Source: Barthelona sp. PCE
Taxonomy: Eukaryota
NCBI GenBank assembly: GCA_040285745.1
Contig: JAUFOR010000004.1
Location: 744,001-808,000 of the forward strand
DNA length: 64,000 nucleotides
Reading direction: 5' to 3'
Shown: piece by piece, positions 3,717 to 59,775 of the stretch
Numbering within the stretch: position 1 is the stretch's first letter
How the letters are laid out: every line of letters starts with the position of its first letter
Notes under the pieces: model-generated
Databases searched by the model: none
What the model was told of the DNA's origin: nothing
Seen by the model: only the letters and a program-made list of their open reading frames with translations
Position numbers and translations under genes: made by a program

Positions 3717-4143
3717 GTGGGGCCCCAAATAACTTGGAATTGGATGTGAAAGGGGAAAAATAGTGTAATTGGGCTAAAAAACTAGCAGAAACTTTCATTT
3801 CTTACGTTTAGGTTAATAAACTGCAACTGAGCACATGATGTAGAAGATGTGCAATTTCAATATCTTCAAAGAGCGAAGCAGTAGCGAATGTTGATCTGTT
3901 TTTCAATAACTTCTATCGATGTTTTATTTGTAATAAAAGGGTGATATATTACTTTATATCCACAATTTGGGAAATAAAAGTAGCATAAATTCAGATGAAA
4001 TAAAAGACTGTTTTTAAAACATTGTAGGAAGATTTATTATGGTAATGTACGTGCTTAGCCATTGAATGCAGGAACATTTAACCCAGAAAAGCAACTCAAT
4101 ATTCTTTTTACTCGCTTTCATCAATTCTTCTTGTTTATATAGA

Positions 4144-4857
4144 ATGCTAAAAGTATTTGAGATTATTGCATCCTTTCACCTTGAGCATCGGATGATGTTT
4201 GTGTCCGTGGCAATTGGGCTTTGTGTTGTTTCTGTTTTGTTGAGTTTGTTTAGACAAAAAGGACCTAAGGGTCGTGAAAACATCAGTGTGATATGCGGTC
4301 CCAACGGGGGTGGTAAGACACTTCTTTTTTACCACATTATGGAGTATCTATCTGGTAAGAGCTTTTTGCCTGAAGATACTATCACTTTACCGAGTTTAGA
4401 GACAAATAAGTCATCTTACGAGGGTAGAGAGATCATCGACGTGCCCGGAACAAGCCGTTTTCAGCATGAATTATTGTCATTATGGAGCAAGTGTAACAAA
4501 TGTGTTTTTGTTGTTGATTTAACTCAATTATATGACGATGATTACGTATATGACGTCGCGGACACATTCGTGAGGTTCCTTGATAGCGAGTATCTCTTAA
4601 GGAACGAATCATTTGCTTTGTTTTTAAACAAAACTGATGAGATCGTCATTGCTACAGAGGAAGAAGCTTTAGAAATCATTGAAACGGGCATCAACAAGGT
4701 CATTGATTCGAAGAATTTACAGCCTAATAACGTAAAGAATCGAACACATTTTTCTTTTGATGATTACAATTTTACAACGTTTTACGACAGTTTGTATGAA
4801 CCTAGTGATAATATTGAAACTTTATATTCATCCGCAGCTAATAAACCCACTCAGTAG
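4144..4857 (+). CDS. SRPRB: Signal recognition particle receptor beta subunit (Arf-like GTPase with N-terminal TM)
   Basis: N-terminal TM, G1 GPNGGGKT, G3 DVPG, G4 NKTD. Start uncertain (4066, 4144 or 4192). Confidence 0.8.
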   Translation: MLKVFEIIASFHLEHRMMFVSVAIGLCVVSVLLSLFRQKGPKGRENISVICGPNGGGKTLLFYHIMEYLSGKSFLPEDTITLPSLETNKSSYEGREIIDVPGTSRFQHELLSLWSKCNKCVFVVDLTQLYDDDYVYDVADTFVRFLDSEYLLRNESFALFLNKTDEIVIATEEEALEIIETGINKVIDSKNLQPNNVKNRTHFSFDDYNFTTFYDSLYEPSDNIETLYSSAANKPTQ

Positions 4858-5276: not shown

Positions 5277-5416
5277 GCCTGTGTGTTTGAAAAGGTGATA
5301 TTACGAAAAACACATTTTTTTGGTTGCAAGGGCTTGTAGTTGCCACAGAGTAGTTGTTTACCGCATCCAAAACATTTTTACTCGTTACTACAATTCACAC
5401 CTTTTTCATTCATCGT

Positions 5417-15369: not shown

Positions 15370-15882
15370 CTATTTTCGTTGCGGTTTTTTATCGCACACT
15401 CGTTGTTTAGGGACTACACCATTGAGAATATCATTGGCTATAGCTTGAGCCTCTTCCTCATCAATAGCCTCATGGTATTTGCCATCGACAGTAATGACAG
15501 GACCACAACAACAAGCACCCAAGCATTCAACATGACGTACTGTCACTTTTTCGTCTAGAAGACTGTGAAATTTGTCAAGGACCGCATCACTGCCCCGGAG
15601 AGAGCAAGGTCCACCAGTGCATACTTGTACTATATGGTCTCCAACAGGTTCACGATTGAACATAGAATAAAAAGTAACAGTTTCAAAGATTTCCTCTTCT
15701 TTGACATCAAAGTAATTCGATAGCTCATTGACATCATCATCAGATATCCAACCTGTATGATTTTGAAGTTCTGTAAGTGCTGGGATTATGGCTGACCGAG
15801 GATGATTGGCAAAGAGCAATTTTAGTTCCTTCATAGCCGGCAGCAGCCCCTTGGAAAAATTCCTTGCGATATAAGTTAGCAT
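15370..15882 (-). CDS. nuoE: NADH dehydrogenase 24-kDa [2Fe-2S] subunit (NuoE/NDUFV2) with short organellar presequence
   Basis: SAIIPAL, TFYSMF, VCTGGPC (C-x4-C) and ECLGAC (C-x3-C); leader MLTYIARNF. Confidence 0.92.
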   Translation of the reverse strand: MLTYIARNFSKGLLPAMKELKLLFANHPRSAIIPALTELQNHTGWISDDDVNELSNYFDVKEEEIFETVTFYSMFNREPVGDHIVQVCTGGPCSLRGSDAVLDKFHSLLDEKVTVRHVECLGACCCGPVITVDGKYHEAIDEEEAQAIANDILNGVVPKQRVCDKKPQRK

Positions 15883-17277: not shown

Positions 17278-17772
17278 TTAGACGAAAAGTTGAGCCTTTG
17301 TTAATACTCTTATGAAATCCTCCAGTGAAACACTACCAGAACCAGTACGGTCTGCCTCATCGATCATTTCTTGAAGTTCTTCGTCACTAATTCCTGATTC
17401 ACCCAATTCATAAGCTGTGCGCTTCAAATCTTTGAAGGTAATTGCACCTGAGTTCTCAGTGTCAAATAATCTGAAGGCCTTGGCCATCTCTTGTCTTGAA
17501 TCGCGCTCACTGAGCTTCAGAGACATAACGCTTAAGAATCCCTCAAATGAAATAACACCTGAATTTGAAGGATCTATCTCACTGATAAGTCTTTTGATCT
17601 CATTCTTGTTAACCTCAATACCCAGAGCACGGAGGGCAACCTTGAGCTCCTTTGCATCAATGGATCCCTGCCCAGAGGAGTCAAACAAATCAAAAGCTTC
17701 ACGTATCTCTGAGTTCTGGTCTTCTGTAAGCTGGAATCTGGAGCGTCTGTTGCTTGCTGCGTTCATTGTCAT
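17278..17772 (-). CDS. CETN: Centrin
   Basis: [25 protein letters not shown], four EF-hand positions, [11 protein letters not shown]. Confidence 0.95.
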
Positions 17773-18150
17773 CTTTAATATATCAAATAATGTAAGAAAT
17801 GGAGTGAAAAATACAAAACATTTTCTAGTTATGTAGCTTCATGTAGGACAATATACAGCCTCACAAACAAGCTTCAAATGCAGATGCAACTTATTAATTG
17901 TAACGTAAATACAGAATTTGTCATGAAAAATGTTGTCATTTTTTCTCCTAATAATCTCCTTTCTGAACGTTTTATTGTGGTAAATAAGCAAACTTATAAA
18001 TGAATTTGGACACAAAACAAGTATAAAAGCTCAATTTTTTGTCATTTACATCTTCAACTCCACTACGGAGTATTGATTTTGTACAACTCAATAGACATCA
18101 ACATAACAAAAAAACATGTTAACTATCATTTACTGTTATGTATATGCTTC

Positions 18151-19876: not shown

Positions 19877-22800
19877 TTAGTTCGTTTGAAGCATAGTCAA
19901 GAATTCAAAAGTGCTATTATGACATTGCGCATGTGGACTCAACGCAACAAAGCGACTCAAAATACCCTTGACCTTATCAGTATCTGTGGTAGTAAATAGA
20001 ACTGTTGAAAGTCTATTGTAAAAAAGCTCTTCATCTTCATCAATATCACAAAAAGAATTAAGCATATGACCAAACTTTGATGCAAAAAGTGGTAGAGGAA
20101 TGTTCTTTGATCGTTCATGAAGGTATAAAGAATTCACATTACTGCAGCTATTGATTGAGCTGTTGTTTCGAGAAATTCTACCAAGACCAAGTGCTGCAAT
20201 TGGCATAGTTGAATTGTTAAACATATTCGTGTAACTGTCTACGAAGGGATTAAAATCTAGCGTTGTGAGTTTCGAATTCTTATCCAACTGACACTGATGG
20301 TTTATGTGGAATTTTGATAAAACAAGACTATCTTCTGATTTAATCTTTGTTTTATCACTTATAACACTGAGTTTCAAGGACAGGTCACTTGAAAAGCGTG
20401 ATTTTGATTGCATTATACTCAGATACGTGTAGTGGAAGAACCTCTGTAGATCTGGTATGATTGAAACGTCAATCGTCTTTGTCTTGCCTAATAGAAGCGG
20501 CTGGATACCGTTAATCATTGCCTCCATATGCTGTGAGAGACTTAGCATTATGAGTATACTCTCCATTGGTAGATCTTGTTCACCAATGTTCTTCAGCGTA
20601 TCTGACAAATTTTGGACCCATGTGAATAACTGTTTTAGCTGATACAGAGAGTTCAGGCCTTCACTTGTCTGAATTCCACCATTAGAAAGACACAATTTTA
20701 ATACTGTGACTACAGACATGCCATGCTCCTTGACAAATGCAAGATGTGAGAAAAAGGATGGTGGTAATGTGTACTTCGTTGTGGGGTTTTTTTTAGGGAA
20801 GAATGGCAACTCAGGGAGATGCTTAAGGAAGAGGCGGACAACTGATGGTGAGTACGTTGATTGAATGAAAGGCATGTCGCAGCGATCAATCGCATGACTG
20901 AAGTTTTGACTGTACATAACCTTGTTGAAACGAAGCGATGATTTAATAATGTCTTCTGAATCAAACAGATCAGGTAGAAGCTCACTAAGAAGTGATACAC
21001 CTGTGATGTTAAAGAGAGCAGATGTATCCTGGGTGGGGAGTACCTTAAGTCGCTGTGAGTTTTCGTTGTAGATGTGGTTCCAAAGCATAAGAGATGGATA
21101 ACCAAGTGCAATTTCATCTCTCTCGCGTTTCTCTTTGATCATATTACCCTTGTCATCAAGGAAGCAGTCAACAACAGAAGCGATGTTGTAAGAAATGCCT
21201 GGGATCGGGAATGATTCATGTATCATCTCCACTGCTGCATGTCTGATACCGTTGTATTGGGCGACACTCTTAATGGCCGTATTATCAGAAAGGTGGTTGT
21301 TTGAGATGCCAGCAGCTGTCGCATAGAAGACACGATATATGTGAGAGACCATCAGGTTTTGAGTGGATGATGTGGAATCGCTAACGTGCATTCCGCTGAG
21401 ACATGCTGAAGCATATGCGTAGCCCATTCGAAGTAGGAACGAATTTAACTGCGTTGAGTTCTCCATCTCATTTGATGAATAAAAGGATGATGGTAGCGAC
21501 AGTAGAAGATTTGGTAACAATGCTTGTACAGTTATTGGTGTTGAGAACGAGAATACATTGAGCGACTGGCGTCTGAAAACATCCTTTAGCTCATCAGGAA
21601 CATCGTACTCATCGTTATAGAAAATGCAGAAGAAGAAGTTCAACTTGTTCAGCTGTAAACAGAAGTTGTTGAGATCCTCGAAGTTGGTGTTCTGCGTGAC
21701 GGTTATGCAAATGACACGACTCTTTGGATCGTGCATTTTGAGGTGGTCGATTGAAGAAATCGACACTGAACTGTGCCAAATCGCTGTGTATCGGTTGTCT
21801 GAGAATACTCGAGACATGAATAACGGAATATGATGCTTGTACGTGAATGCAACACCATATCCCAGACCAGTTCTACCAGTGATCGACTTTGACTTCAGCA
21901 AGGTTGACAAAACATTATTCGCCATGATGACATCGGGATCAGTCATAGTTTGCGATATATCAGCACCGCATATAAATTCAATGAATGAACGAAGCAGAGA
22001 TGTGAGCAGTGAAGAGTTGGGATGAGAATCAGATACAACAGCACCATCAACAATGCGTGGGATTGCTAGAGATCGTGTCAAGTTGTACACAATGACGAAT
22101 AACTGCACTTTGTTCAGATGCTCAAAGGAAGCAAACTCAGAAAGAATTTCCAAGAACTCAATGAGAATGATCTTATGTGATGAGAACATTTGCTGTTCGA
22201 TATTATGATACAATTGAGTGAAAATATCGCACTTTGCTTGGAATTCTTCCAAGAATTCACTGAAATCAAAGGAAATGATGTCTATACTTGAGAGATATTG
22301 CAGCCTGTACAATCCGTTGCTATCATACTTGCATTCTTCGACTTCGGCATTGATTGGGAGCTTAATAGTTGAGTAGTCAATGTCAAGTAATGCCAGTATA
22401 TTAGACGTCACATCTTTGTACGAACTGTACGACTCCGTTGAAACATGGTCACTATGCTCAACCCCATCAAAGAAGGCCATCATTGCAAGTAAGTAGAAAC
22501 GCTCATTCAACGGAATTTGGTATAGAATAATCTTCTTCAGGTTAGTTAACGAATCAAGTAACATATCCAGACGTGCTTTGGTACCAATTGGTGCATTTTT
22601 AGCCCCACTAACAACCATTTCAACAAAGTTAAGAACTTGGTTAAAGTTAAAATATTGGAAATTCTTCAAGAAGTTCTTGTACAAATCTGTGAAATTCTTA
22701 ATAAACAAAACAAACTCTTTGGCGAATTGAAGATATATACTACTGTAGACATTTAAGAAATCAAAACGTTCATTGACGCGCTGAATCTCTTTTTGGTTGT

Positions 22801-25800
22801 TGTTCAGGTTTTCAAAAAGATAAACCAAATTGCTAAAGATGCTATCGATGTTGGTAATATTTGAATCAATCTGACTGGTTGTAAGGAATATATCATTCTT
22901 AATTGTAGTTGTTTTTTCCTGGAAAACCTGCAATTCTTCTTTGAGTCTGAAAAATTCCTCGCATAAATCAGGTGAATCGCACTTGAATATATGCTTGAAG
23001 ACAACACGCTCCATCAATCCGTTTGAAGGAGAAAGTTCAATGTGATTGAAGAGAGTGCTAACCGACTTGACATTCTCAAACAGATCAGTAGAATCAACGA
23101 CGAAGAAAATATTGGGCAGTCTGTCAATGTCTATATCATACATAACACCATTCACCTTGAAATAATTGAAAGAACCGGAGAAGCAGTTGAATAAAGTTCC
23201 AATTGCTTCTTGGAAGATACCCAAGTCTTTGCTACTATTGAGACGCCATATGATACAATCTTCGTTGATCACCTCCTCATAGTTGTATGTGGCAAAGTCG
23301 TGCGAAGGAATATTGAGATATGATCTCATTATTGATGCGGGATCGTATATGATCATGGGTGCATAAACGGACGAAACCATTGCACCACAGAAGAACTGTG
23401 CCAACTCCGGGTCACCAGCCACACAATGAAGTGATTCGGGGAGAATAGAGCACACAACATCCCTACGCTCAAAGAAAGTTGTAAATGAAACATTTTCATT
23501 ACTAGGCATTATGTTTTCAATCATATTGCTGAGTATTTTGTCACGACTACTGTGCACGTGGTTGCGATACTGTAGATATAACATGACAGATAAGGTATTC
23601 CAGAAAACATTGATACGAGAAGGTGTAGATATGTGAGTACAGTTTTTCATAATATCTTTAAGGTCATTGACCACTAAATCAAATTGTAAAAGATTACGTT
23701 TGATATTAGCGAGGAAATTTTGGTTCATTCTGATTTTTTTGGTTAAAAACTCCAGTTTTTCAATGTATTCCTTTTGTTTGCTTTGATTCTTCTCAATCTT
23801 CGTTTCAAACAATTTGATTACATGTTCTAAGTTATCAAATTCAGTCGAAAGCTCTTCTCTTCGTGTTATCAAATGGAAACGATCGATATAAATAGTAACC
23901 AGAGGCTCCAAATAAACAAAGAACTTCAAGAGTCTGACAGCAACTGGTAACACTGCAGAGAGAAATGCAGCACTGAAATGCGGTTGATTGTAAAGCAACT
24001 TCATGAGAGAGAAGTTATTTAAACCTAAACCACCAATTAAATCGCGGAAAGGAACGGAAAAATCAGAATCAGTGATTTTGTTGAATTCAACTTCCATTGA
24101 TGTTGGATAAGAATAAGTTCCGGAGGAATGGTCAATAACTACTTCAAGATTAGGACTGAAGAACGCTAAAATGAATGCAAAAGTATCTTGAACAACCAAC
24201 CAATCAGGGTTTTGTTTTGCATTTTCAAAAACACGACGGACAAGAGTTGGAATTTCCTTCAGATGCTGAAATTCTTCTTCAAACTTCTCAAGCATGATCT
24301 GACTGCGTTCGTTGAAAGTAGCAATGTTCTTATTGATGCTATCAAGTTCAAGTGACACACCCATCAGTTGAGTTGATGAATTAGATTTCTCAACTTGCCA
24401 ATCTGCTAATTCGGTTGAGATTTCACTGAGACAATCAAGCTCCTTTCCCTGTAGTTCCTGGAGGCTATCAATTTCCTCTGTGGAATTCGTGTTCTTGCTG
24501 CGTACAGTTTCTTCAAGACGTAGTAAGACTTGGAGACTCTGTTGCAACCTGTTCATTGTGTCTGCGTCTGACTCAAAAGATTTGACAGCTGCCAAGAAGA
24601 CATTGCTCATAATGAGACCGTATTTGCCTAATGTTGTTGGTGTAAGGTGAACGGTGAATATCTGTGATAAATCGGGAATATTGCGGTAGAGAGTCTTTTC
24701 CAACACAGTATGAGCATCGAAGTTGATTTTCTCATTCACACTGTTAACCAAAATTTTGCGTTTAGCATTAATCTCCATTTCTGATTGTTCTTCCTTCGTT
24801 TTGCGGCGAGCACGGCTCCTTTTCTCCTTCTTTTCTTCCAGAACAACTGTCTCACATTTGGGTTTGTAAGAATCCAACATAGAGATGAGTTCATCAGCAG
24901 TAATGTTAAGAGATGATGTGTCTTCATCTCTCTTCTTTTTCTTCTTCCTCTTCTTTGCTTTCTTTTTGCGTTGTTCCTTGGAAAATTCTTCGCTAAGATT
25001 CTTACCTTGAGGAAGGATTTGTACAAAACTAGCAGTTAGTGTCGCAACACATTTTCCAAAGTCAAAGCTCATAAGCTGCTCAATATTTTCAGGTTTCGTA
25101 TCTTTGTGTCCAATTATCTTATCATTCAGTAATTTTTGAAACTGAGGCGCTTCGACTATACCCGCACTGAAAGTGTTTTGAATCTCTAAAACAGGGAGAG
25201 TCTTCCACATTACACTTAATGCAAATTCTACAGGTAACCAGTCAATTGAACACGTTGTATCTGTGACAATCACCTTAATATGACTAAAACTATCAATATG
25301 TGACAATAAATCAAGCAAAAATGACTCACGCTGTTTAGCAACCGAACCTCGAACGATAATAAGAGAATTATCTTTGATATCAGCCATCTGAGTACCCATT
25401 TCTAAAAACACCGGTCTTAGCGGCAGTGATAGGAATAATATAATGCAACGAATAAAGTTGAAATCATATAAAGGAAGATAGTAGCGTGAAACAACATCGC
25501 TTTGCATGAGAATGTGAATTCCCTTCACATGTAACTGACTCAACAAGAAAGCTGTCTGGAATAATTGTAGATGACAGCTCTCAGATTCTTTAACGTAAGG
25601 GTGTAAAGGCTCTGGAACGAACTGGATGATTGCATTATTAAATTCACTAACACTGAAATATTGGACGCAGTAAGATCCATCAACGTATCGAATCAGCGGT
25701 AGAACACGATCAAACGAATTAACAACGTTTGGCATATTCTTGCTCAGTTTTGATGGGGAAAACCCAGATGTCACGCTTTGTGTCTCACTGTGCTGATCTG

Positions 25801-28800
25801 ATGCACCAGCTGAAGACATTGTTGACTGGAATGAATCACGGTGACCCTTTGAAATTGAGAAAACCTTGCTCATTGTGTGAGTGAAGCTCTTATCGAAGTC
25901 TACATCGACCAAATCATGCAAATAAACCTCTATAATACTGAAAGAAATCCTAAGAAACTCTGAAATTTCCAATTTGGGATCAGGTTTAATGTTGAGTAAA
26001 CTCTTAATAATATTAATGAATAGTAGCTTTGACATTCGACGATGTTCGGGCTTTAGATTATCAAGGAAACGTTCAATAATGTTAAAGAGTGTGTTCATCA
26101 GTTGTGGTGTAAAGCAATGATATCCATTACTCTCCTTGAATATATTCACGCACAGTTTTCCAGCTATCTCTCTTGGTGAAATATCGGTTGTGATGAACAG
26201 AGGAAATGTACGTTGAGATAACTTATTATTCATTGCACCTCGCGTCTCAGACGCACAAAAGTACAGATCATTAACTGTGACCATCGATCTAGGGTCATTT
26301 GTGTCAAGATGGAACACATTATCTGTGACTAGTGAGTGTATTATAGTACTTTCCATTGTGCTATTGTTGATACTGTCCAGTTTGAAGATATGCGCAATAT
26401 CATGAAACTTCTTCTTTGGGACATAAACACCAGAGCTAACCTGATTAGTCCTACTCTTAACAATATCGAGAATGGATGTTTCACTATATCCTTTTAATCG
26501 AATAAAGTCCATTGTCTCGTCAACATCAAAAGTTGACTGGTCTTGTTGTGTGAGGAATAGTGCTTCAAGAAGAGTAGATCTGCCTGAATATGATGTTCCA
26601 CACAAGAGTGGGATGAGAGGGGTTCCAGTACTAAGTTCGTTCTTTCTGTTTGTGAACAAAAGATCAACAAGGAACTGAACGCTTGCAAACTCCTTCGAGA
26701 AAATGACGTTGATATTCTGAGCGTTGATAACTGCATCAATATTCACCAATCCACTTTCTATAACACACGGTTCAATTTTGCTGTCTATGATGAGGTTTTC
26801 AGCAGGTAACCATTCAGCAGAATGTACGTCAATGACATAGTCAAATATACTGGGTAGACTAACCTGTGTTGGGTTTCTACGTCGATAGTTCAGTGAGGAG
26901 CGACTGAGTAACTGTGTCTCCTTGATGCTATCAACTGTGTTCATTATACTATCAGGGATACCTGGTAGTTTTAATGACAAATACAAGAATACTGTAAACT
27001 TCTTCTTGTCATCGTTGGAAAGGACAGAACCCAAACATGTAAAGAGCGCGTAAGAGAATATCCTGCGAACTATATGAGAGGGAAGAGGGAAGTTGAATGC
27101 GCTGGTGTTTCCAGTGAAGTTAATAATGAGGGCACCAACAATTTCACTCATGATCCTGATACAAGAGTTCCTGGTCAGGTGGCGTAACGGCTTCAAACGA
27201 AGTGGGTTATCCTCCAATGAAGGTGTGAACAGGAACGTGTATGCACGGTCAAAGAAGGTCAAGAAAAGCCATTCAAGTAATTGGTACGTGTGTTCAATCG
27301 TGATTGACCCACTACGTCTCTTATCCTTTTGCTGTTCATCAATCTCACTTTCAATCTCCATCTCAATCAACGAGGAATTTGTATTGAACATTGTTAAGTT
27401 CTCAATGGTTGGTGAAAAGTCATAGTTCATCTGAGAGCTGTTGGCTTTCTTCAGTTCGAGATTCTTCACCTTCTCAACTACAATTTTAACCAAATGCTTC
27501 CAATCAATTGCATCGCTGTTCATATAAAAGACAGGGATCACCGACCCATAAACAGATTTTTGAACAGAACTGGGCAACTCTACAATGAAAACAAACTCAT
27601 TATTCATGAGATAACGTTCTTCCTTTTGTCTTAAGAATGAACGTGTTGTGAACATTGATGTACCAAAACTCAGCAAGTTATTCAGGTGCGGACTATTCTC
27701 CTCAGTGATATGCACATGAATGAATGTACAGTAGTTATTTGAGTCCAGGTTTGGTTTTGTTATTGGAACAATGATGTCTTCAAAGGACAGATTGGGGTCA
27801 AGCTGATCGAGGAACACTTCCTTATATTCAATCTGTTTCGTTATAAGCTTCTCCAAACAGCGGACAAGAGCACGGATAAGTGTTGTTTTACCGCTACAAG
27901 AATCACCTGAAAGACCAATGAAGTTTGAGAAGAGCAATGATACAAACATATTTGAAGCTAGTTTTTGAATATGTGTAGATGGTGATAGTAATCCTAGAGA
28001 GTCATATACTACTGCCAACTCCGAACAAAGTGGTGTATCATACAGAATCTCGCCAAACTCTTCCAACGTGCCAGTTGAGTGCAATGTTTTTCCTGACTTC
28101 GTTGATTTGAAAGATTTATGAGATCTAGCGGAATTTTGTCCAATATAAGGCGTGAGAGTCGGTGCATTATGAACACTGCTCAACAGCAGATCATGTGGAA
28201 CATGCTTGAACTCATGAGAAAGTCTTAGGTTAAATATTTGTTCAAGTAATTTGTTAAATTGTGACAAACGAATATTACCAACGTTAAATGTAGCCAAATC
28301 TTCAAGTTTGATGGGAAGGATACGTGAATTCAGTTGCATAGTGCTAGGACTTGGCTTTATCGATGTTGTCCTATGATCAGACCTTGATGTGCTCTCATAC
28401 ACCTGCTTTTTCTTATTTGATGCGTCTGCCTCATAATATGTCTTGTAGAAACTGAAACTTAGATCATAAACTTGACTATTCTGTTCAAAATGATAAATAT
28501 CTAAAAGAGAGCTTAACTCTTCATCGTTTTTAAAGGTTGAATCAAACACATAAATCAAGGATGTTACGATGATTTGGGACTCATGGCTGGTGACAGAGTG
28601 AATGTACTTGCTATTTTGTTCAGAATCCTGTATGGAGAGTGAACAGTTTTTCTCAAGAGCGTCACGATCTTCTTTAGCTACAGAAAATGCACTAAATAAA
28701 TGGTTAATGTAGTTAGATGGTAGTACAGTATGTTCTCTGCCTTTCATAATCGAAATAATGTGTAACAATTGGAGAACTTGACCATATCCAATGGTTGTTT

Positions 28801-31800
28801 TCATTTCCCTCTCAAAACATTCAAAAAACAATGATATTTTCTTAGCCAGACCTGAAGCATCGACAAAACCCTCAGAAATAAGAGATGTGAAGATTAGAGA
28901 TCCGAAATTCGGCTTAGATAAAGATACTGAGCGGGCAAATTGCTTAAGTATTTTCTTCTTCTCATCAGAGCTTTCAACAAAGGTCTGACTTAAAACAAAT
29001 CCACTGTTTCTATCAATCTTCAATGGGTGAGATTCAATATTAAGTTGTATAACCGATGAGCTTTCCTTCTTTGCATTTTCATAAATAGTACAATAATGGT
29101 TCAGTTCTTCTAAAACTGTGTTTTTCAAGCAGTTGATGCCATGGAATAAGACCCAGATATCAGTACCTATAGCTGCGTTGAACAATCGAGAAAGCTGGGC
29201 AGATGAACAACCCAATGCACAGTTGAGCGTGAGGATCATCTTACCCGCAAAAGTAGAAACAAAACGCATAATATCATGTGATATTGAGCTCTTTGAGTCT
29301 TTTAGAACAAAGTATTGTCCACTATTAATATAATTTATGATTGTAGTCGCCAACTGCACATAATCAGTAGTAGAAACTGGAGCAATTAACTGCGAATGTG
29401 TATGAAAAGTAGTTGGTGACCGCTTTCGATACGATAGAAAATCATAGCCGTACGTCATCATGTTGAGACCTAAACCGATCAGGAGCTCCTGTTCGTCTTT
29501 TGAAAGATAAACACGGAATCGTGAAGCCCACTCAACATCATACGTGCTCTTCACTCTTGAACGCAGTATATGCTCAAACACATCCTTATAGTACAAACAA
29601 TTTGAAAGAATATACTTGAGCTTAACAACAGAAGTGTAATCTGTGTAAGTGACGCCCAATTCCTCCAAAGCTGCATTGTTAGGATTGCCGTAGAAAAGAG
29701 AGCTTAGCTGACAAATCATAATGCTTAGTTGATTCAGAGCATTATTTGACTCCAATCGACCAGCAGAACCCGACATGGTTGATGACTCAATTAAATTTGT
29801 GAGTGTAACGGAATTGGCGAGCATTACGGCCTGTAAATGATGAGTGTTCAGAGAGTTTAGTACTGAAGCAACACTGAAATTGGCGTCACAACAGCATTCA
29901 ACAATACTCTTTTTGCTCGCCAACTTAACAGCATCCTTGATTGTGTACATGAACGTTCCAATCTGATGAATTAAATCTTCACCATGCAAATCAAACAGAT
30001 CAATGGACTGCTGGAAACCAATATACTCATTAAGGTTGGTCTTAAAACCAATAATGACCTGGGGAAGAAACTTATCAAAGACTAATTCTTCAATAAACGG
30101 AAAAACACTGTGCAATAATCGCACGTCAACGAAATTATCCTTCTTCTTCTTCGCATCCACATGAATTGTACCCAGCTCATCTGTTGAGTTAACATCCATA
30201 TGGTTAACAAACATTTCTCTATTAATGGGACTAAGTGTAGCCAACAAACTGAGCAAGTGCTCACGTGTGATGAAGAAAAGAATAGGGTGGTGCGCACGTT
30301 TCATCTCTAACAATTCTTCTAATTTCTTCTCCATATGAGAAATGAGAGATGCGAGTTGTGGTAAGAAAGTCTGACTCATGAGAGACAACTCAAAATCATT
30401 ATCCTTCATGTTAATAAAACAAGGCAAAAGTAGAGCGTCACAATCCTTGATAAATGAGATGATTGAATTCCAAAGACCAGAAAGACCACTAAATACGTTG
30501 AAGACAGATGTGGCACTTGTATCACTTTCCTTAAGAAGATTGAGACCGGGGAAGATTTTGTGCAATAAAGTGAGTTGATGTTGGAGATTCTTTAATTGTA
30601 TTAATTGAGTTTTAATCTCCATTAGGATGCTTATCCACATCTCAACGTTTGAACAAACATGACTTTTAATGATGAACTTATTGATTGTAAACGCCTTTGT
30701 GAGTTCAATTTTGGCAATCGTTAGCTTATGATAGTACAAATCGCAATACTCCAATAATTTTTCGATTGTATGATCGGAGACCACCTCCACTTCAGGGAGT
30801 AACTTGGTAAACGTCAAACAATGTGCTGAAAAGCGATATATAACTTCATCAAGGGTATTTTGAATGCTGAATTCCAAAGAAGACAACGCAAGAAGCTGCT
30901 CAATAAAACTTTTTGATGAAACAACATCAAATTCAACTAAAAACTTCACACTAAGTTCGCTTAAATCAATTGAATCGGCAAAAACAATATCTTCAGTTAA
31001 AGAAGTGGATATAATATTTGTACTGTTAGCCTTTGCACTCAAGTGATCAGTTAAACACCTCCAGTAGAATGAATTCAATCTAGACGAAACCAACTTATGA
31101 AGAACGGGTAACAGTGCATCTAAGAGATCACGAGTTTCGTAAATACTCTTGAGTAGTGATCCACTCGAAAACAAACCTGCATTCAGACCAGTACCATCAA
31201 AAACACACTCAAGCTTCTGATTGAGCTTCATAAAATCAATTTCAGCAGAACCAAGATCAAGCTCCAATACCTTAGTGTTGAGAATAACGCTGCTTAAACT
31301 ATGGAATTCATCATATATATCAATCAAAGAACCACTCAGACTTGTCATCTGAATTATATTATCCAAATCAGGGTCCTTACCAAATAGCGGCAGATAAAAT
31401 AGCTCTGCACCAATATTAAGCAAATCTATATCATAAAGTACTTTGTCCAACATACTTGCAAAGTTATTATGTATCTCGCGGACTTGTGCAATCGAAATAT
31501 TGTTCTTTAAAGGTGAGGAACTCTCAATCTGGCTTGCTAATTTCACAAGATCAATGCGGATCTGCTTACGAATAGCCATGATCTGGTTAACAAGATCTGG
31601 TGTGAGGGACTTCAGTTTTGCTTCAGCCTCTTGTAATGAATGAACAACTTCTAACCAAACACTATCAACTGTTAGTAAAAGGAAGGCTTCTTCGACTTCG
31701 AACATTGTACTACCAGGGAAACATTCCTCGGTGACAACATGAAGTAATGATCCACGTCTGCTACCAAATGCAGAACCCATATCTGGTATATTTGTATCCA

Positions 31801-34800
31801 AACCAGAACCAACACTGGAAACGTCAAAATTGAACTGGAAGTTTTGATCAGCTGTCTCACTCTCAAACTCAATGCTGTTGAATGAAGCAATGGATCGATT
31901 AGATGGGATGGCAGAAACATCAATTTTCATTTCTTGCAGACGCTCATTCAAACGTTTACGGAGCGAATAACCACGGAAAATACGTTGAATGACGACAGCA
32001 GCATGTTGCTGCTTCTCTCTATGAGCAGCTGCAGCACGGGAAGGCCTGCGCTTTTTAGAGAATGGGCGTGAATTGAATAGCATAGTTTGACCAGTTTCAA
32101 AGCCACCGACAATTGAAGGTCTGCGGCTGGAAGGCCGGCTACGCTGCAACGGAACACTCTTCAGAGCTTCTATTGACATTGTATCCTCAAATACATCATC
32201 TTTAAAATCCAGACTCTCGCCTTCTTCAAATCCAGCATTGTGCGATTCTTGGATAAGGTCAAGTTCTGCTTCAAACTCCTGAACATGCATCTGTTTTTTC
32301 ATTGATCGATGTTGGCATTCCTCTTCAAACACCTGTAACGGACTTGGGATATTCGTTTTTTTTGTATTCTTGTAGTGTTTTAGGATACTTGAATACTGTT
32401 TTGCAATCTGTGTCGCATAGACGAGCGCTTCAGGCTGAACACCGGCGTTGTATTTCGCAATGAAATCATAGATTGCTTTGATTTGACCAATTTTAATGCT
32501 GATCTCTGTATCAGTATCCTTAACATCATTCACAACATCCTTCACAATTTTGAAGTCGTTGATTGTCTTGACGACGGAAGAGAATGAGTTGAGCTTCTCC
32601 GAGCAGTCACTGACAACACACTTGAGTTCAGTAGCGGCTAGTTTCCGCAATGGACGCGAACACAAATCGTACCATACCCTGAGCTCGCTTACTAGCGCAG
32701 CTTTGAGTGGCTTGAGACTTAAAGATACACCAGCCACTCGTGTGTACTTGACAAAATCATTGTGTTCAACGAGAATCTCCATTGAAGAGTTCAAATCCTT
32801 GAAGATTAATTCAGCGCTGTTAAGATCAAGGTTATTCAGTGAAATACTACCACTGTCATCATTACCAGAATTGAAATCATTAAATATGCTTGTTAAATTA
32901 GTAAACGGATCAGAAATGAAAATCCAGTCGAACTTGTTGCTGATATCATCTAACACATGTGAAAAGTTCTGCTGAAGCTTGCTGAACATCTCAAAGCACA
33001 AAAACATATTCAATATGTCCGTGTCCTCAAGGAAAGCATTGTAAATACTGCAGTTAAAATCAGGCAGCATACCCAAGCTATCAGTGCAGCATTCAACAAC
33101 TTCACATGCATCGTTAATACCCTCTACAATTGGTAAATCAGCAAAGCTATGGATTAAAATAAATAAAATCTGTCTGATACCATCCTTAAGTGTAAGCTCT
33201 GTGGAGTTATCGATTACTGGATACTGAATAAGAATATGGGGGACTTTAAGTACGACGTCAAGCACAAATACTGGTTTGTAGGTCCCGTCGTCACATAAAT
33301 AACCCTTTGTGAGAACGTTATGAAGAGATTTAAGATTCTCAATTACAACAAATTTCAAAACTCTAAAGATTTGTCCACTTAATCTTTGCTTGAATACGTT
33401 TAACTCTTTTAATAAATCTCCTTTTTTCTCTAAGAAAACATCAGTGTCATAACAGTTATCATTCTTTTCATATGAATCAACAATAAATTGTTCCAATTCA
33501 AACAAACTATCTTGAAGTTCAGCTAAAAACTTCTTGATACTTTGTATAAACTGTGAAATCGATTGCTGCTGAATATCTATGAAAGCTGTTAAATCAATAT
33601 TATTGATATCAATATCTTCATTTAAAACATAACTGAAATCAAAAATCTTATACTTCAGAAGTCGTAAAAGAGGATACAGCATGCGTTGATACAAAATATT
33701 GTCTAAAGAAGCTAGGTTGGCTTTAAGCAATGTGAGAGAGTGCTCACACTTGAACACGTACTCATCCAAAATCATAGAATTCCATGTAAGAATGGCAAGA
33801 CCCTTTGAAAAACTGGTTTCAACCAATTCAATGGCATGTAGTAGTAACGGAAACAGCAAGGGAGAAATCCTGCCGAACAAATCTTCACGAAGGGTTAATA
33901 ACTCTTCGAGTTTGTTTGCAAAATTTAGATAGTTGTTCTGCTGTTTCAATACAATTTCTGTACAGTTGGGTAAATCTAAAGATTTTCCACTACTGTCTTC
34001 TAAGGATTTAGAATCATAAACGCTGTTGAGGAATTTCAAATTCTTGATCATTTCCTTTAGCTGGGATGCAAACATAATAACAAGATTTTTATCCTTATCA
34101 AATGTTAAAAGGTTCTGGTTCAGGTTCAGTCGCAAAAGCTCAATGTGTTTAGTAAATGAATAATGATGAACAACTTCAAACTCTGTAAGATCGTTAAAAA
34201 GATGATTGTACTGAATAACAGTATTACTCAGGAACCCTGGTGACAGGAAAACACGCAGTTTTAACACACAATTCAATTCAGTAGTGAGTTTATCCGTGAG
34301 TACCTTAACCAGGCTTATCTTTGAACTTATGAGAGGAAGATTCTTAGAAGTGGGTTTGTCTTGATCCTTGAGGAACTTCTTCTTCAATTCTTCAACATTG
34401 TCTTCAAACTCCTTCAACAGTTGATTGGAAATATCTTCAAATGCTTGTTCAAGATAATTGAGCTTGTACAGTTTCTCCAATGACAACAACTGATTGATAC
34501 GCTCAACTAATGTCAGCTTATTGTTCTCGTTCAGCAAGAACAACTGTGGTAGATATTGATAAAGATCCTTTTGTACTTGAAGATTTGTGTTGATAACACG
34601 TGTGAAGATTTTTTTCAGATTTGTGTCAAAAGTAGTAAGAGGATCGAATGTACTTGTTTTTAGATTCTTCAACAAGTACTTAAGATACTCCAAACTATTC
34701 AATTTGATATCTGGTAAGTCATAGAATATGATATAAACTTCTAGAATTTGCTTTAAAAGCATAAGATTCTCTCTAAATTGATTAATATCATAGAATATAT

Positions 34801-36145
34801 CTTCATCAGAGATTACAATGTTGAATTCATAGAAATGTAATCGATTTTGATTAAAGTTGAATTGGTAATTAGAGATAAGCTCATCCAAATTATTCAATAA
34901 TTGAATCAAACTTTTTAAATCATGAATCTGAAGTAACAAATGCAACGAACTGCTTGTATGAATGGGAAAGAGAACACTCCTTGTAAATTTAATAAACAAA
35001 TTGTTGAAGAGCATGAGGAGATATTTGACAGAACTAGTATCACAAAAAAGATTACAGTTCCTCACCAAGATGAGTAAAATCTCAAAAAAGTGAGGTATTT
35101 GATTGACTACCACATCAATAACACTTGAAAAATGTGAATATTTCAAATGACCCTCTTTAAAGCTTTGGTTATTTAATAAATGATTAAACTTATCAAAACT
35201 GCTCAAGTAGGAACATATTTCTTTGGTTTCCTTTTGACTTTCCATTAAAAGATTTTCATATTTTCTCCAGTTTTTCAAAACTAAAGTAGAACGATTAAGA
35301 GTTAATAAATCGAATATATTCTTTACGTTCTTCTGTTTCAGTTGCTCGATGATTGCGTTGATACTTGATAATCTATTTTTCCAATAAGAAAGCTCATCAC
35401 TCGGAAGGGCATTGAAGAAATTTTTTCTGATTGCAGCTATGTTTTGCATCTCTCCACAGATATCCTTAATTAACGTGATCCAACTTTCCACCAAGGTTTC
35501 ACAGTAAAATATGTTCTCTGGTGTTAGAATATCAGCGCTATTACCATTTTTAGGGTTCAGATTTAAATCCTCTTTAATGTTGATAATATTATTACTAGAA
35601 GAAATTTTTGAACACAGCTCATTATAATTGGTAAGGAAATTAGCAAATGATTCTTGAAAGATATTTAATGATCCTAAATTTGTTGTGTTCAGATTTGAAG
35701 TGGATTCAACAAAAGGATTGAGAACTTTTTCAAATAGGTGACTGAAACTTGTCAATATATCACCGTTACATACGAACTGAAATGTCATTTCATCAAAATT
35801 CTCTGGAGTTAGAACAACTTCTGCTTTTCGAACAATAAGTATGGTTAAAACATCTGAGCTGAGGTCGTCAACATAGAGTTGCACGCTGCAGGGGACAGAA
35901 ACCTCCTTTATCTCTTCAATATCGTCGTCAAATACTTGAATGGTAGAATTCCTGTTGCTTAAATACAATGAAAAAGAGGAAATCGTTGGGTCCGTGAAGA
36001 ACATTTGGTACGCATTGATAATTTCCTCGGTGAAAAATGCAGTAAATGAGATATTTAATTCTGAATTGGTTAGCGAAACAGTTACAAGCTCTAATAGGCG
36101 CTTGAACCTACAATCAAGCTCTTCGGCATCGGTAATGGTGTGCAT
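19877..36145 (-). CDS. Highly divergent dynein heavy chain-like protein (~5420 aa) with degenerate AAA1 and an IQ motif
   Basis: DHC_N1-like ELSYWKNRLSSINAIIEQL and LTWNS; linker DVEWASRFRVY/YGYDFL; AAA2 GDSCSGKTT; AAA3 GTSYSGRST; stalk coiled coils. First ATG at 36145. Confidence 0.8.
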   Translation of the reverse strand: MHTITDAEELDCRFKRLLELVTVSLTNSELNISFTAFFTEEIINAYQMFFTDPTISSFSLYLSNRNSTIQVFDDDIEEIKEVSVPCSVQLYVDDLSSDVLTILIVRKAEVVLTPENFDEMTFQFVCNGDILTSFSHLFEKVLNPFVESTSNLNTTNLGSLNIFQESFANFLTNYNELCSKISSSNNIINIKEDLNLNPKNGNSADILTPENIFYCETLVESWITLIKDICGEMQNIAAIRKNFFNALPSDELSYWKNRLSSINAIIEQLKQKNVKNIFDLLTLNRSTLVLKNWRKYENLLMESQKETKEICSYLSSFDKFNHLLNNQSFKEGHLKYSHFSSVIDVVVNQIPHFFEILLILVRNCNLFCDTSSVKYLLMLFNNLFIKFTRSVLFPIHTSSSLHLLLQIHDLKSLIQLLNNLDELISNYQFNFNQNRLHFYEFNIVISDEDIFYDINQFRENLMLLKQILEVYIIFYDLPDIKLNSLEYLKYLLKNLKTSTFDPLTTFDTNLKKIFTRVINTNLQVQKDLYQYLPQLFLLNENNKLTLVERINQLLSLEKLYKLNYLEQAFEDISNQLLKEFEDNVEELKKKFLKDQDKPTSKNLPLISSKISLVKVLTDKLTTELNCVLKLRVFLSPGFLSNTVIQYNHLFNDLTEFEVVHHYSFTKHIELLRLNLNQNLLTFDKDKNLVIMFASQLKEMIKNLKFLNSVYDSKSLEDSSGKSLDLPNCTEIVLKQQNNYLNFANKLEELLTLREDLFGRISPLLFPLLLHAIELVETSFSKGLAILTWNSMILDEYVFKCEHSLTLLKANLASLDNILYQRMLYPLLRLLKYKIFDFSYVLNEDIDINNIDLTAFIDIQQQSISQFIQSIKKFLAELQDSLFELEQFIVDSYEKNDNCYDTDVFLEKKGDLLKELNVFKQRLSGQIFRVLKFVVIENLKSLHNVLTKGYLCDDGTYKPVFVLDVVLKVPHILIQYPVIDNSTELTLKDGIRQILFILIHSFADLPIVEGINDACEVVECCTDSLGMLPDFNCSIYNAFLEDTDILNMFLCFEMFSKLQQNFSHVLDDISNKFDWIFISDPFTNLTSIFNDFNSGNDDSGSISLNNLDLNSAELIFKDLNSSMEILVEHNDFVKYTRVAGVSLSLKPLKAALVSELRVWYDLCSRPLRKLAATELKCVVSDCSEKLNSFSSVVKTINDFKIVKDVVNDVKDTDTEISIKIGQIKAIYDFIAKYNAGVQPEALVYATQIAKQYSSILKHYKNTKKTNIPSPLQVFEEECQHRSMKKQMHVQEFEAELDLIQESHNAGFEEGESLDFKDDVFEDTMSIEALKSVPLQRSRPSSRRPSIVGGFETGQTMLFNSRPFSKKRRPSRAAAAHREKQQHAAVVIQRIFRGYSLRKRLNERLQEMKIDVSAIPSNRSIASFNSIEFESETADQNFQFNFDVSSVGSGLDTNIPDMGSAFGSRRGSLLHVVTEECFPGSTMFEVEEAFLLLTVDSVWLEVVHSLQEAEAKLKSLTPDLVNQIMAIRKQIRIDLVKLASQIESSSPLKNNISIAQVREIHNNFASMLDKVLYDIDLLNIGAELFYLPLFGKDPDLDNIIQMTSLSGSLIDIYDEFHSLSSVILNTKVLELDLGSAEIDFMKLNQKLECVFDGTGLNAGLFSSGSLLKSIYETRDLLDALLPVLHKLVSSRLNSFYWRCLTDHLSAKANSTNIISTSLTEDIVFADSIDLSELSVKFLVEFDVVSSKSFIEQLLALSSLEFSIQNTLDEVIYRFSAHCLTFTKLLPEVEVVSDHTIEKLLEYCDLYYHKLTIAKIELTKAFTINKFIIKSHVCSNVEMWISILMEIKTQLIQLKNLQHQLTLLHKIFPGLNLLKESDTSATSVFNVFSGLSGLWNSIISFIKDCDALLLPCFINMKDNDFELSLMSQTFLPQLASLISHMEKKLEELLEMKRAHHPILFFITREHLLSLLATLSPINREMFVNHMDVNSTDELGTIHVDAKKKKDNFVDVRLLHSVFPFIEELVFDKFLPQVIIGFKTNLNEYIGFQQSIDLFDLHGEDLIHQIGTFMYTIKDAVKLASKKSIVECCCDANFSVASVLNSLNTHHLQAVMLANSVTLTNLIESSTMSGSAGRLESNNALNQLSIMICQLSSLFYGNPNNAALEELGVTYTDYTSVVKLKYILSNCLYYKDVFEHILRSRVKSTYDVEWASRFRVYLSKDEQELLIGLGLNMMTYGYDFLSYRKRSPTTFHTHSQLIAPVSTTDYVQLATTIINYINSGQYFVLKDSKSSISHDIMRFVSTFAGKMILTLNCALGCSSAQLSRLFNAAIGTDIWVLFHGINCLKNTVLEELNHYCTIYENAKKESSSVIQLNIESHPLKIDRNSGFVLSQTFVESSDEKKKILKQFARSVSLSKPNFGSLIFTSLISEGFVDASGLAKKISLFFECFEREMKTTIGYGQVLQLLHIISIMKGREHTVLPSNYINHLFSAFSVAKEDRDALEKNCSLSIQDSEQNSKYIHSVTSHESQIIVTSLIYVFDSTFKNDEELSSLLDIYHFEQNSQVYDLSFSFYKTYYEADASNKKKQVYESTSRSDHRTTSIKPSPSTMQLNSRILPIKLEDLATFNVGNIRLSQFNKLLEQIFNLRLSHEFKHVPHDLLLSSVHNAPTLTPYIGQNSARSHKSFKSTKSGKTLHSTGTLEEFGEILYDTPLCSELAVVYDSLGLLSPSTHIQKLASNMFVSLLFSNFIGLSGDSCSGKTTLIRALVRCLEKLITKQIEYKEVFLDQLDPNLSFEDIIVPITKPNLDSNNYCTFIHVHITEENSPHLNNLLSFGTSMFTTRSFLRQKEERYLMNNEFVFIVELPSSVQKSVYGSVIPVFYMNSDAIDWKHLVKIVVEKVKNLELKKANSSQMNYDFSPTIENLTMFNTNSSLIEMEIESEIDEQQKDKRRSGSITIEHTYQLLEWLFLTFFDRAYTFLFTPSLEDNPLRLKPLRHLTRNSCIRIMSEIVGALIINFTGNTSAFNFPLPSHIVRRIFSYALFTCLGSVLSNDDKKKFTVFLYLSLKLPGIPDSIMNTVDSIKETQLLSRSSLNYRRRNPTQVSLPSIFDYVIDVHSAEWLPAENLIIDSKIEPCVIESGLVNIDAVINAQNINVIFSKEFASVQFLVDLLFTNRKNELSTGTPLIPLLCGTSYSGRSTLLEALFLTQQDQSTFDVDETMDFIRLKGYSETSILDIVKSRTNQVSSGVYVPKKKFHDIAHIFKLDSINNSTMESTIIHSLVTDNVFHLDTNDPRSMVTVNDLYFCASETRGAMNNKLSQRTFPLFITTDISPREIAGKLCVNIFKESNGYHCFTPQLMNTLFNIIERFLDNLKPEHRRMSKLLFINIIKSLLNIKPDPKLEISEFLRISFSIIEVYLHDLVDVDFDKSFTHTMSKVFSISKGHRDSFQSTMSSAGASDQHSETQSVTSGFSPSKLSKNMPNVVNSFDRVLPLIRYVDGSYCVQYFSVSEFNNAIIQFVPEPLHPYVKESESCHLQLFQTAFLLSQLHVKGIHILMQSDVVSRYYLPLYDFNFIRCIILFLSLPLRPVFLEMGTQMADIKDNSLIIVRGSVAKQRESFLLDLLSHIDSFSHIKVIVTDTTCSIDWLPVEFALSVMWKTLPVLEIQNTFSAGIVEAPQFQKLLNDKIIGHKDTKPENIEQLMSFDFGKCVATLTASFVQILPQGKNLSEEFSKEQRKKKAKKRKKKKKRDEDTSSLNITADELISMLDSYKPKCETVVLEEKKEKRSRARRKTKEEQSEMEINAKRKILVNSVNEKINFDAHTVLEKTLYRNIPDLSQIFTVHLTPTTLGKYGLIMSNVFLAAVKSFESDADTMNRLQQSLQVLLRLEETVRSKNTNSTEEIDSLQELQGKELDCLSEISTELADWQVEKSNSSTQLMGVSLELDSINKNIATFNERSQIMLEKFEEEFQHLKEIPTLVRRVFENAKQNPDWLVVQDTFAFILAFFSPNLEVVIDHSSGTYSYPTSMEVEFNKITDSDFSVPFRDLIGGLGLNNFSLMKLLYNQPHFSAAFLSAVLPVAVRLLKFFVYLEPLVTIYIDRFHLITRREELSTEFDNLEHVIKLFETKIEKNQSKQKEYIEKLEFLTKKIRMNQNFLANIKRNLLQFDLVVNDLKDIMKNCTHISTPSRINVFWNTLSVMLYLQYRNHVHSSRDKILSNMIENIMPSNENVSFTTFFERRDVVCSILPESLHCVAGDPELAQFFCGAMVSSVYAPMIIYDPASIMRSYLNIPSHDFATYNYEEVINEDCIIWRLNSSKDLGIFQEAIGTLFNCFSGSFNYFKVNGVMYDIDIDRLPNIFFVVDSTDLFENVKSVSTLFNHIELSPSNGLMERVVFKHIFKCDSPDLCEEFFRLKEELQVFQEKTTTIKNDIFLTTSQIDSNITNIDSIFSNLVYLFENLNNNQKEIQRVNERFDFLNVYSSIYLQFAKEFVLFIKNFTDLYKNFLKNFQYFNFNQVLNFVEMVVSGAKNAPIGTKARLDMLLDSLTNLKKIILYQIPLNERFYLLAMMAFFDGVEHSDHVSTESYSSYKDVTSNILALLDIDYSTIKLPINAEVEECKYDSNGLYRLQYLSSIDIISFDFSEFLEEFQAKCDIFTQLYHNIEQQMFSSHKIILIEFLEILSEFASFEHLNKVQLFVIVYNLTRSLAIPRIVDGAVVSDSHPNSSLLTSLLRSFIEFICGADISQTMTDPDVIMANNVLSTLLKSKSITGRTGLGYGVAFTYKHHIPLFMSRVFSDNRYTAIWHSSVSISSIDHLKMHDPKSRVICITVTQNTNFEDLNNFCLQLNKLNFFFCIFYNDEYDVPDELKDVFRRQSLNVFSFSTPITVQALLPNLLLSLPSSFYSSNEMENSTQLNSFLLRMGYAYASACLSGMHVSDSTSSTQNLMVSHIYRVFYATAAGISNNHLSDNTAIKSVAQYNGIRHAAVEMIHESFPIPGISYNIASVVDCFLDDKGNMIKEKRERDEIALGYPSLMLWNHIYNENSQRLKVLPTQDTSALFNITGVSLLSELLPDLFDSEDIIKSSLRFNKVMYSQNFSHAIDRCDMPFIQSTYSPSVVRLFLKHLPELPFFPKKNPTTKYTLPPSFFSHLAFVKEHGMSVVTVLKLCLSNGGIQTSEGLNSLYQLKQLFTWVQNLSDTLKNIGEQDLPMESILIMLSLSQHMEAMINGIQPLLLGKTKTIDVSIIPDLQRFFHYTYLSIMQSKSRFSSDLSLKLSVISDKTKIKSEDSLVLSKFHINHQCQLDKNSKLTTLDFNPFVDSYTNMFNNSTMPIAALGLGRISRNNSSINSCSNVNSLYLHERSKNIPLPLFASKFGHMLNSFCDIDEDEELFYNRLSTVLFTTTDTDKVKGILSRFVALSPHAQCHNSTFEFLTMLQTN

Positions 36146-47108: not shown

Positions 47109-47239
47109 AGAAAGGGTTATGTAAAAAAATACAGCATAGAAGTCTGTTTTGAGATTATTTGAAGAATCAAAATGATTAGAATAGTGTAGAATGACCCACA
47201 ATGATGATGATTTAATTTTTTATTAATACTTACATACAA

Positions 47240-58042: not shown

Positions 58043-58147
58043 TAAAAGAGAGAAAATATTTTGCAAGTTTTAATTTACAATTATTTAAATGAAGCATGTC
58101 CTTTCACTATAATCATGGTTTCAAGTTATATTTATTAAAAAATTATT

Positions 58148-59728: not shown

Positions 59729-59775
59729 TATATAAACTCGAAGGAGAGTGTTTATAGGATAACAACTGCTTTACC

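Follow-up and report, generated by a model that had tools for sequence, protein, structure and literature searches.

Hydrolysis of ATP at AAA1 is needed for the dynein powerstroke cycle, and AAA2 is a binding-only nucleotide site in the known dyneins. Non-motile dynein heavy chains are already known as a kind (DNAHX, DNHD1, and Kollmar's orphans), and among them DNHD1, which is not known to carry the DHC_N1 dimerising tail, is tied to ciliogenesis defects. DNAHX is described in the cited sections of its preprint as a non-motile derivative of class 3, seen ATP-bound at AAA1, whose partner in sea urchin looked canonical rather than like a second dead chain, and the same sections call it absent from protists (bioRxiv 10.1101/2025.01.18.633724). 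They also present DNHD1 as a full-length heavy chain without the AAA1 Walker B residues (bioRxiv 10.1101/2025.01.18.633724), and Kollmar's 2016 survey, in the sections cited here, treats DNHD1 (class 11) as specific to metazoans (PMC5100056). That survey reports divergent motors joined to tails of ancient classes (class 3 and class 4), proposes an outer-arm heterodimer of classes 12 and 13, describes these two classes for Holozoa/Metazoa, places basal orphans in Thecamonas and Guillardia, and says of the ATP sites that they were 'not analyzed in detail' (PMC5100056). By our own inference, DNAHX is probably class 12 of the survey.

The chain compared here with these systems is encoded in a 64-kb window, the whole stretch of DNA that was analysed (G000:C4:744001-808000), in the 10,234,662-base, eight-contig genome of Barthelona sp. 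PCE, a lineage described in the cited part of its source as having the smallest genome among free-living eukaryotes (PMC11316075). An earlier note on this DNA had described an intact dynein heavy chain ORF and proposed domain mapping. The ORF (Table 1) is indeed intact, and the mapping returned dynein profiles, DHC_N1 in the tail (E 8e-48) and AAA_6 at residues 2299-2458 (E 2e-11). From base composition about 356 stops would be expected across the 16-kb frame and none is present, which rules out a frameshift or assembly artefact as its source; the other two frames contain 299 and 566. The note attributed its length to Ser- and Lys-rich inserts: the chain is serine-enriched (10.4% versus 7.1%), but its lysine richness is only local (a run at residues 3723-3739), the overall content being 6.3% versus 6.2%.

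Table 1. Features of the dynein heavy chain-like gene, in positions of the 64-kb window
Feature	Position	Strand	Residues and remarks
Dynein heavy chain-like ORF	19877..36145	minus	5,422 aa, stop-free
DHC_N1 tail	33758..35500	minus	residues 216-796; Pfam E 8e-48; class 3 (outer-arm gamma, DNAH5/8) type
Ser/Arg-rich tail insert	31712..32362	minus	about residues 1262-1478, approximate edges; specific to the four gamma-derived copies
IQ motif	31949..32005	minus	residues 1381-1399; Pfam E 0.0025, over cut-off in genome search
Linker	29480..31366	minus	residues 1594-2222; hhalign probability 99.6
AAA1 large subdomain	28745..29311	minus	residues 2279-2467
AAA1 Walker A replaced	29276-29302	minus	KDSKSSISH, residues 2282-2290
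AAA1 Walker B replaced	29132-29146	minus	FHGIN, residues 2334-2338
AAA1 sensor I replaced	28979-28993	minus	LSQTF for ITMNP
AAA1 sensor II replaced	28775-28789	minus	GYGQV for DFGLR
AAA2	26798..27979	minus	residues 2723-3116
AAA2 P-loop kept	27884-27907	minus	GDSCSGKT, residue 2747
AAA2 arginine finger facing AAA1 replaced	about 27530-27547	minus	column-anchored alignment
AAA3 large subdomain	26117..26695	minus	residues 3151-3343; weak hhalign hit (E 6e-4; E 0.003)
AAA3 P-loop position	26576-26599	minus	GTSYSGRS, residue 3183
In-frame GT..AG stretch, 45 nt	26329..26373	minus	removed as putative intron in the deposited P0001 model
Lys/Glu-rich insert before stalk	24752..25009	minus	about residues 3713-3798
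Putative stalk	23690..24592	minus	coil 3852-3965, 123-aa gap, coil 4089-4152
Gap at MTBD position, basic-poor	23882-24250	minus	charge count; approximate edges
Putative AAA5 with buttress hairpin	22499..23458	minus	about residues 4230-4549; pLDDT mostly 70-84 at 4377-4549
Putative AAA6 and C-terminal domain	19880..22498	minus	residues 4550-5422; position only

The genes around the ORF are unrelated housekeeping genes, and a functional gene neighbourhood was rejected. A centrin-like EF-hand gene (17278-17838, minus strand) lies 2 kb downstream, probably by chance in this gene-dense genome. Elsewhere in the window are a thioredoxin-like [2Fe-2S] ferredoxin gene (15370-15882, minus), which we take to be of the NuoE type and which would as such be of interest for reduced mitochondrial organelles; an ABC transporter with ABC_membrane_2 (59758-61509, plus), presumably of the usually peroxisomal ABCD type, in an anaerobic metamonad; and three long ORFs of 1,701, 1,006, and 1,340 aa (5354-10459, plus; 44199-47219, minus; 54047-58069, minus) without a Pfam match at E 0.001.

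The 5,422-aa chain is one of many degenerate heavy chains in this organism. Family searches of the genome found 20 heavy-chain-like ORFs, nine canonical and at least 11 degenerate, all counts being lower bounds. Four of the canonical chains were identified as gamma, beta, 1-alpha, and 1-beta; the other five were classed as three single-headed and two cytoplasmic chains from length, domain content, and place in the tree only. The degenerate set, at least 11 strong, comprises four gamma-derived, five probably beta-derived, and two single-headed-derived chains, 10 of the 11 with full-length frames, and it occupies 164 kb (1.6% of the 10.2-Mb genome) versus 119 kb for the canonical set. Since intact class-3 and intact beta chains exist in the same genome, the degenerate gamma and beta copies are extras.

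The four gamma-derived chains (group A: the 5,422-aa chain with C8:1848063, C8:2075471, and C6:193526) are 4,806-5,883 aa long and only 15.6-21.8% identical in pairs. The nearest named record of the 5,422-aa chain, P0001 ('hypothetical protein PCE1_002398 [Barthelona sp. PCE]'), is identical to the ORF except for a 45-nt intron call; the group A paralogs carry residues at the aligned columns, and the stretch may be coding sequence. The deposited models of three group A genes (P0001, P0002, and P0004) each drop one in-frame stretch as a putative intron (15, 16, and 21 residues). No ortholog from another organism was found: the single homologous protein among 1,010 scored candidates was P0001, the chain's own named record, and in the best 150 of 542 library hits only the four group A records exceeded 300 bits.

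The five chains of group B (G000:C2:586664-602776 (+), C4:948361-962991 (+), C1:306738-322124 (-), C2:556339-571911 (-), and C2:1157409-1173152 (+); loci L045-L054) are 4,867-5,354 aa long and contain no GxxxxGK[ST] anywhere; in profile tests AAA1 and AAA2 were not locatable, and weak AAA4, AAA5, and C-terminal signals appeared in order. Sequence comparison makes them probably beta-derived. Their tail profile ranks outer-arm beta first against PDB (105 bits versus 53 for DNAH5 and 45 for DNAH10) and the linker scores best with the beta chain of this genome; against the genome's own chains the tail scores gamma above beta (21.6 versus 4.0 bits), and a word-based search limited to proteins of at most 5,000 aa gave seven weak hits, six of them named DNAH10. 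Two of the five form a younger pair (30.6% identity), which leaves four deep lineages, matching the four in group A. The remaining degenerate chains are a 4,239-aa single-headed-type protein (G000:C8:560091-572864 (-), L035-L036), which has lost Walker A and B of AAA1 and kept the AAA2 and AAA3 P-loops, and a 3,187-aa DNAH6-like protein (G000:C3:1268628-1278197 (+), L032-L033), which has a degenerate AAA1 and ends after AAA4 and the stalk region, with no second half seen in the flanking sequence.

On sequence, the tail and linker of the 5,422-aa chain are class 3. Its first 1,000 residues match seven PDB sequences: DNAH5, Chlamydomonas gamma, four Tetrahymena outer-arm entries, and a 4,730-aa chain labelled CFAP57, which is also the second-ranked match for the intact gamma chain. 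Group A profiles score 95 bits against the genome's gamma chain versus at most 2 (tail) and 43 (linker) against the other eight canonical chains, and of the best 150 of 542 library hits there were 114 with a match to a canonical chain, gamma being best in 87 of the 114 (two of them the family's own records). With canonical outer-arm gamma chains (DNAH5/DNAH8, Chlamydomonas gamma) the protein shares tail, neck, linker, the order AAA1-3, and probably, by predicted model, the stalk/AAA5 fold; it differs in being about 780 aa longer, in carrying a strict IQ motif in a new insert, and in the loss of all AAA1 catalytic motifs. Absent from it are the Walker A and B motifs, sensors I and II, the AAA2 arginine finger, and the canonical basic MTBD of motile gamma chains.

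By sequence, AAA1 retains none of the motifs on which ATP binding and hydrolysis are known to depend. The loss of Walker A reported in the earlier note is real, although two alignments pair GPAGTGKT with DSKSSISH, one residue off the register given there; the Walker A lysine is absent in either register (KDSKSSIS or DSKSSISH). The readings of Walker B as FHGIN and of an AAA2 P-loop preserved as GDSCSGKT were likewise correct. All nine canonical chains of the same genome have GPAGTGKT and DEFNR in AAA1, and the ATVSR arginine finger, invariant in the nine, aligns to GSVIP. An intact AAA1 P-loop elsewhere in the ORF was rejected, there being only two P-loop-like motifs, which were placed at AAA2 and AAA3. 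The lysine-to-arginine change that the note saw at AAA3 is present, but it is not diagnostic outside AAA1: it is weak evidence because canonical AAA3 and AAA4 loops of this genome vary too, the AAA4 P-loop having arginine in five of the nine chains. Across group A the Walker B acids are lost in all four chains, C8:2075471 keeps the AAA1 Walker A, and the AAA3 P-loop is not conserved, being intact in one paralog; the G..GK of AAA2 is invariant in 13 of 13 aligned rows. The fold round AAA1 is kept in a model of residues 2170-3130 (pLDDT 72-85 at about 2300-2400), with which Foldseek returned dyneins (E 4e-12), the model having canonical chains in its alignment and a mean pLDDT of 46.7.

An insert between neck and linker is specific to group A. 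The gap between landmarks on its two sides measures 229-282 aa in group A versus 22-31 in 103 of 105 other rows and 55 in the genome's own gamma chain. That intact chain (L027/L026, G000:C3:259984-273909) has a 30-aa insert of its own at nearly the same neck loop (residues about 1250-1285), which its Skoliomonas ortholog P0013 is without. Only 133 of 5,422 columns are identical across group A, and the best-conserved window is the IQ motif, identical in all four paralogs at nine of 20 columns; the AAA2 P-loop window ties for second (5 of 20). None of the nine canonical chains has the strict IQ pattern, which one group B chain (C4:948361-962991) carries twice, inside the linker region. IQ-like motifs have been predicted earlier in gamma tails (PMC5669419, in the part cited), and in the Chlamydomonas structure LC4 does not bind via the predicted IQ motifs, according to the cited part of that report (PMC7817835), so an IQ match need not be one that is used. 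The description 'catalytically dead but maintained' is thus supported: the AAA1 site has lost five catalytic elements, and the frame, the fold, the AAA2 P-loop, and the IQ motif persist across four paralogs.

The dynein domain order claimed in the earlier note stands by sequence from the tail to AAA3, but beyond that it leans on weaker evidence. Profile-profile comparison gave no match to AAA4, the MTBD, AAA5, AAA6, or the C-terminal domain for group A, the last 2,000 residues of the 5,422-aa chain have no profile hit, and in an hhalign-type profile test the C-terminal domain aligned at the matching position non-significantly (E 0.55). Coil prediction found a third coil at 4400-4465 besides the two of the putative stalk, a layout that matches the intact gamma chain (118-aa gap and buttress). 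The Lys/Glu-rich insert would probably lie in the AAA4 small subdomain. In an Atlas feature search with residues 3400-5422 the clusters listed were all dynein stalk/AAA5 (top 0.91), with a recognition value of 1763, below its mark. For a model of residues 3830-4620, built from the four group A paralogs alone (mean pLDDT 42.7), every listed Foldseek row contained dynein (best E 3.2e-4, two rows below 0.001), and a wide structural search with it gave generic helical hairpins only. In the stalk/AAA5 half, dynein is recognisable through predicted fold and language-model features alone. The segment at the MTBD position, within approximate edges, has eight Lys plus Arg and a net charge of -4, versus 15-21 and +1 to +9 in the nine canonical chains, and the MT family profile matches those nine only and not the 5,422-aa chain.

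Because the tail is outer-arm class 3, DNAHX/class 12 is a closer analogue than DNHD1. The earlier note's analogy to DNHD1, judged here by description, holds only in the sense of a non-motile heavy chain: both have lost the AAA1 Walker B, but the 5,422-aa chain has a class-3 DHC_N1 tail, which speaks against orthology to animal DNHD1, and the most DNHD1-like architecture in the genome is that of G000:C8:560091-572864. With DNAHX the chain shares an origin in the DNAH5/8 class, a length of about 5,200-5,400 aa reached through insertions, a degenerate AAA1, an altered stalk tip, and a coexisting intact class-3 chain. It differs in that DNAHX keeps the Walker A lysine and is far less diverged, whereas the 5,422-aa chain has lost all AAA1 motifs, has three paralogs, and carries an IQ insert where DNAHX-like proteins have none; it also seems to keep a coiled-coil stalk of normal length, whereas that of DNAHX is folded back in the cited sections of the preprint. 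DNAHX is further marked by a locked pre-powerstroke state, a phi heterodimer, and a folded AAA4S insert that touches the C-terminal cap; the Lys-rich pre-stalk insert of the 5,422-aa chain is at most a candidate counterpart of that insert, its coil spacing looks canonical, and the model of this region is weak. An expansion to nine copies, as in groups A and B, is not among the descriptions of classes 12 and 13 in the cited sections of PMC5100056.

Group A is one clade with very long branches in every tree. In the tree that includes cytoplasmic dyneins (29 of 42 rows) it is unplaced, and seven of 47 fixed-backbone placements survive; once they are left out (26 of 33 rows), its sister is a clade made up of DNAHX-like animal proteins with P0078 and P0012, and its grouping with the wider DNAHX-like clade has SH-aLRT 88.8 and AU 0.956, with 11 of 41 placements surviving. 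Here 'DNAHX-like' is our label, given from length, hosts, and Walker A pattern. A position as sister to Fornicata-plus-BaSk gamma survives (p 0.08), and fixed-backbone placement tests rejected three others: an origin by recent duplication from this genome's gamma chain (AU p 0.0096 and 1e-5), a position as sister to that chain plus its Skoliomonas GEM-RC1 ortholog (p 0.029), and any place among the animal DNAHX-like members. Long-branch attraction could produce exactly the DNAHX-like grouping. A shared insert was rejected, the IQ insert being absent from DNAHX-like proteins, and Walker A is kept in all 18 non-canonical rows among 119. We lean towards an independent origin of group A, and regard shared descent with DNAHX-like proteins as somewhat the less probable history. 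Six further class-3-like chains with a partly degenerate AAA1 come from non-animal or unnamed records (P0014, P0050, P0108, P0078, P0012, and P0164); P0050 clusters with a Nyctotherus ovalis fragment, and P0012/P0164 and P0078 group with DNAHX-like proteins. If P0164 is ichthyosporean, as we presume from its gene-id prefix, the DNAHX-like clade would extend to unicellular holozoans.

We consider it probable, at about 0.85, that the 5,422-aa chain is a dead motor kept for a function. For the whole of the scheme that follows, a non-motile, calmodulin-binding, outer-arm-like scaffold, the odds seem to us even. Without hydrolysis at AAA1 there would be no powerstroke cycle; AAA2 would still bind a structural nucleotide that holds the ring, and the stalk tip would bind microtubules weakly or not at all. 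The tail would use its N-terminal domain to pair with a heavy chain of beta type, for which the simplest candidate is one of the five degenerate beta-derived chains, to give a motor-dead outer-arm-like dimer; beta and gamma heavy chains are described as heterodimerising via the NDD in the cited part of PMC7817835. Calmodulin or a related EF-hand protein would bind the IQ insert beside the linker and make the complex calcium-responsive. The job would be structural or regulatory, namely to fill or space outer-arm sites along part of one flagellum of an unlike pair or, alternatively, to handle active arms during assembly. There is room for region-specific arms because the two flagella are unequal and heterodynamic and attachment is by the posterior one, as the cited part of PMC13087550 describes. 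Extended to the family, this would become a parallel motor-dead outer-arm system of some four calmodulin-gated gamma/beta pseudo-dynein heterodimers, either metamonad members of class 12/13 (DNAHX) or an independent re-invention, which is a tentative idea that we would not expect to hold in full. Both models are of low confidence overall (pLDDT 42.7 and 46.7), and this, together with the C-terminal half lacking a profile hit, speaks against the scaffold reading. The low Atlas recognition value, the weaker beta assignment of group B, the Walker A kept in C8:2075471, the unused IQ motifs of Chlamydomonas, and the canonical-looking partner of DNAHX in sea urchin weigh in the same direction.

Most of the motor has eroded past profile detection and one family member ends at 3,187 aa, as might be seen in functionless duplicates heading for loss, yet this is improbable for a 16-kb frame free of some 356 expected stops, in a family with 10 of 11 frames at full length, an IQ motif and an AAA2 P-loop common to paralogs at 16-22% identity, and a cost of 164 kb (1.6%) of a 10.2-Mb genome. 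A motor still active through AAA2 or AAA3 in place of AAA1 is the least probable of the readings considered: the AAA2 P-loop is conserved and that of AAA3 is intact in one paralog, but the latter is not conserved in group A, AAA2 only binds nucleotide in known dyneins, and the stalk tip is poor in basic residues. The basic-poor tip would fit a protein that works as the model proposed for DNAHX, dimerising with canonical chains in an inhibited, phi-like state for flagellar transport rather than residing in the axoneme (bioRxiv 10.1101/2025.01.18.633724, in the cited sections). The same class-3 origin, the similar length, and the best tree placement beside the DNAHX-like clade also point that way, but we think it unlikely, as it leaves five further dead beta-derived chains unexplained and DNAHX-like proteins, ATP-bound in the cited sections with Walker A kept, are without the IQ insert, whereas the 5,422-aa chain probably cannot bind ATP in that way. 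The large paralogs, nine in all, are more numerous than outer-arm sites, and with their extreme divergence and the unusual cytopharynx and fibre set described in the cited part of PMC13087550 they could be taken to build or cross-link fibres of the flagellar apparatus or of the long barthelonid cytopharynx; the tails keep an outer-arm signature, however, and nothing ties family proteins to those structures, so that such a non-axonemal role seems a little less likely still than the transport role.

New relative to the known non-motile chains are the scale of the family, an AAA1 site erased completely, the insert with its IQ motif, and the pairing of gamma and beta sets. A literature search on Barthelona and Skoliomonas dyneins, with most subscription papers outside its scope, found no description of the family, the word 'dynein' occurs nowhere in the main texts of PMC11316075 and PMC13087550 or in six text-readable supplements of the former, and supplements of the Kollmar and DNAHX papers may list metamonad orphans. 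In a tiny genome there are more dead chains (at least 11) than live ones (nine), a balance that is difficult to account for unless the dead ones have a function. The family suggests that dyneins can have work other than that of a motor, and its IQ insert indicates a specific regulatory input. Should the link to DNAHX be true, the claim that the DNAHX family is absent from protists falls, and if the heterodimers proposed above are class-12/13 members, non-motile dyneins would be pushed back towards the last common ancestor of eukaryotes. The matched gamma- and beta-derived sets offer a place to test, in a culturable cell, the class-12/13 dimer that Kollmar proposed.
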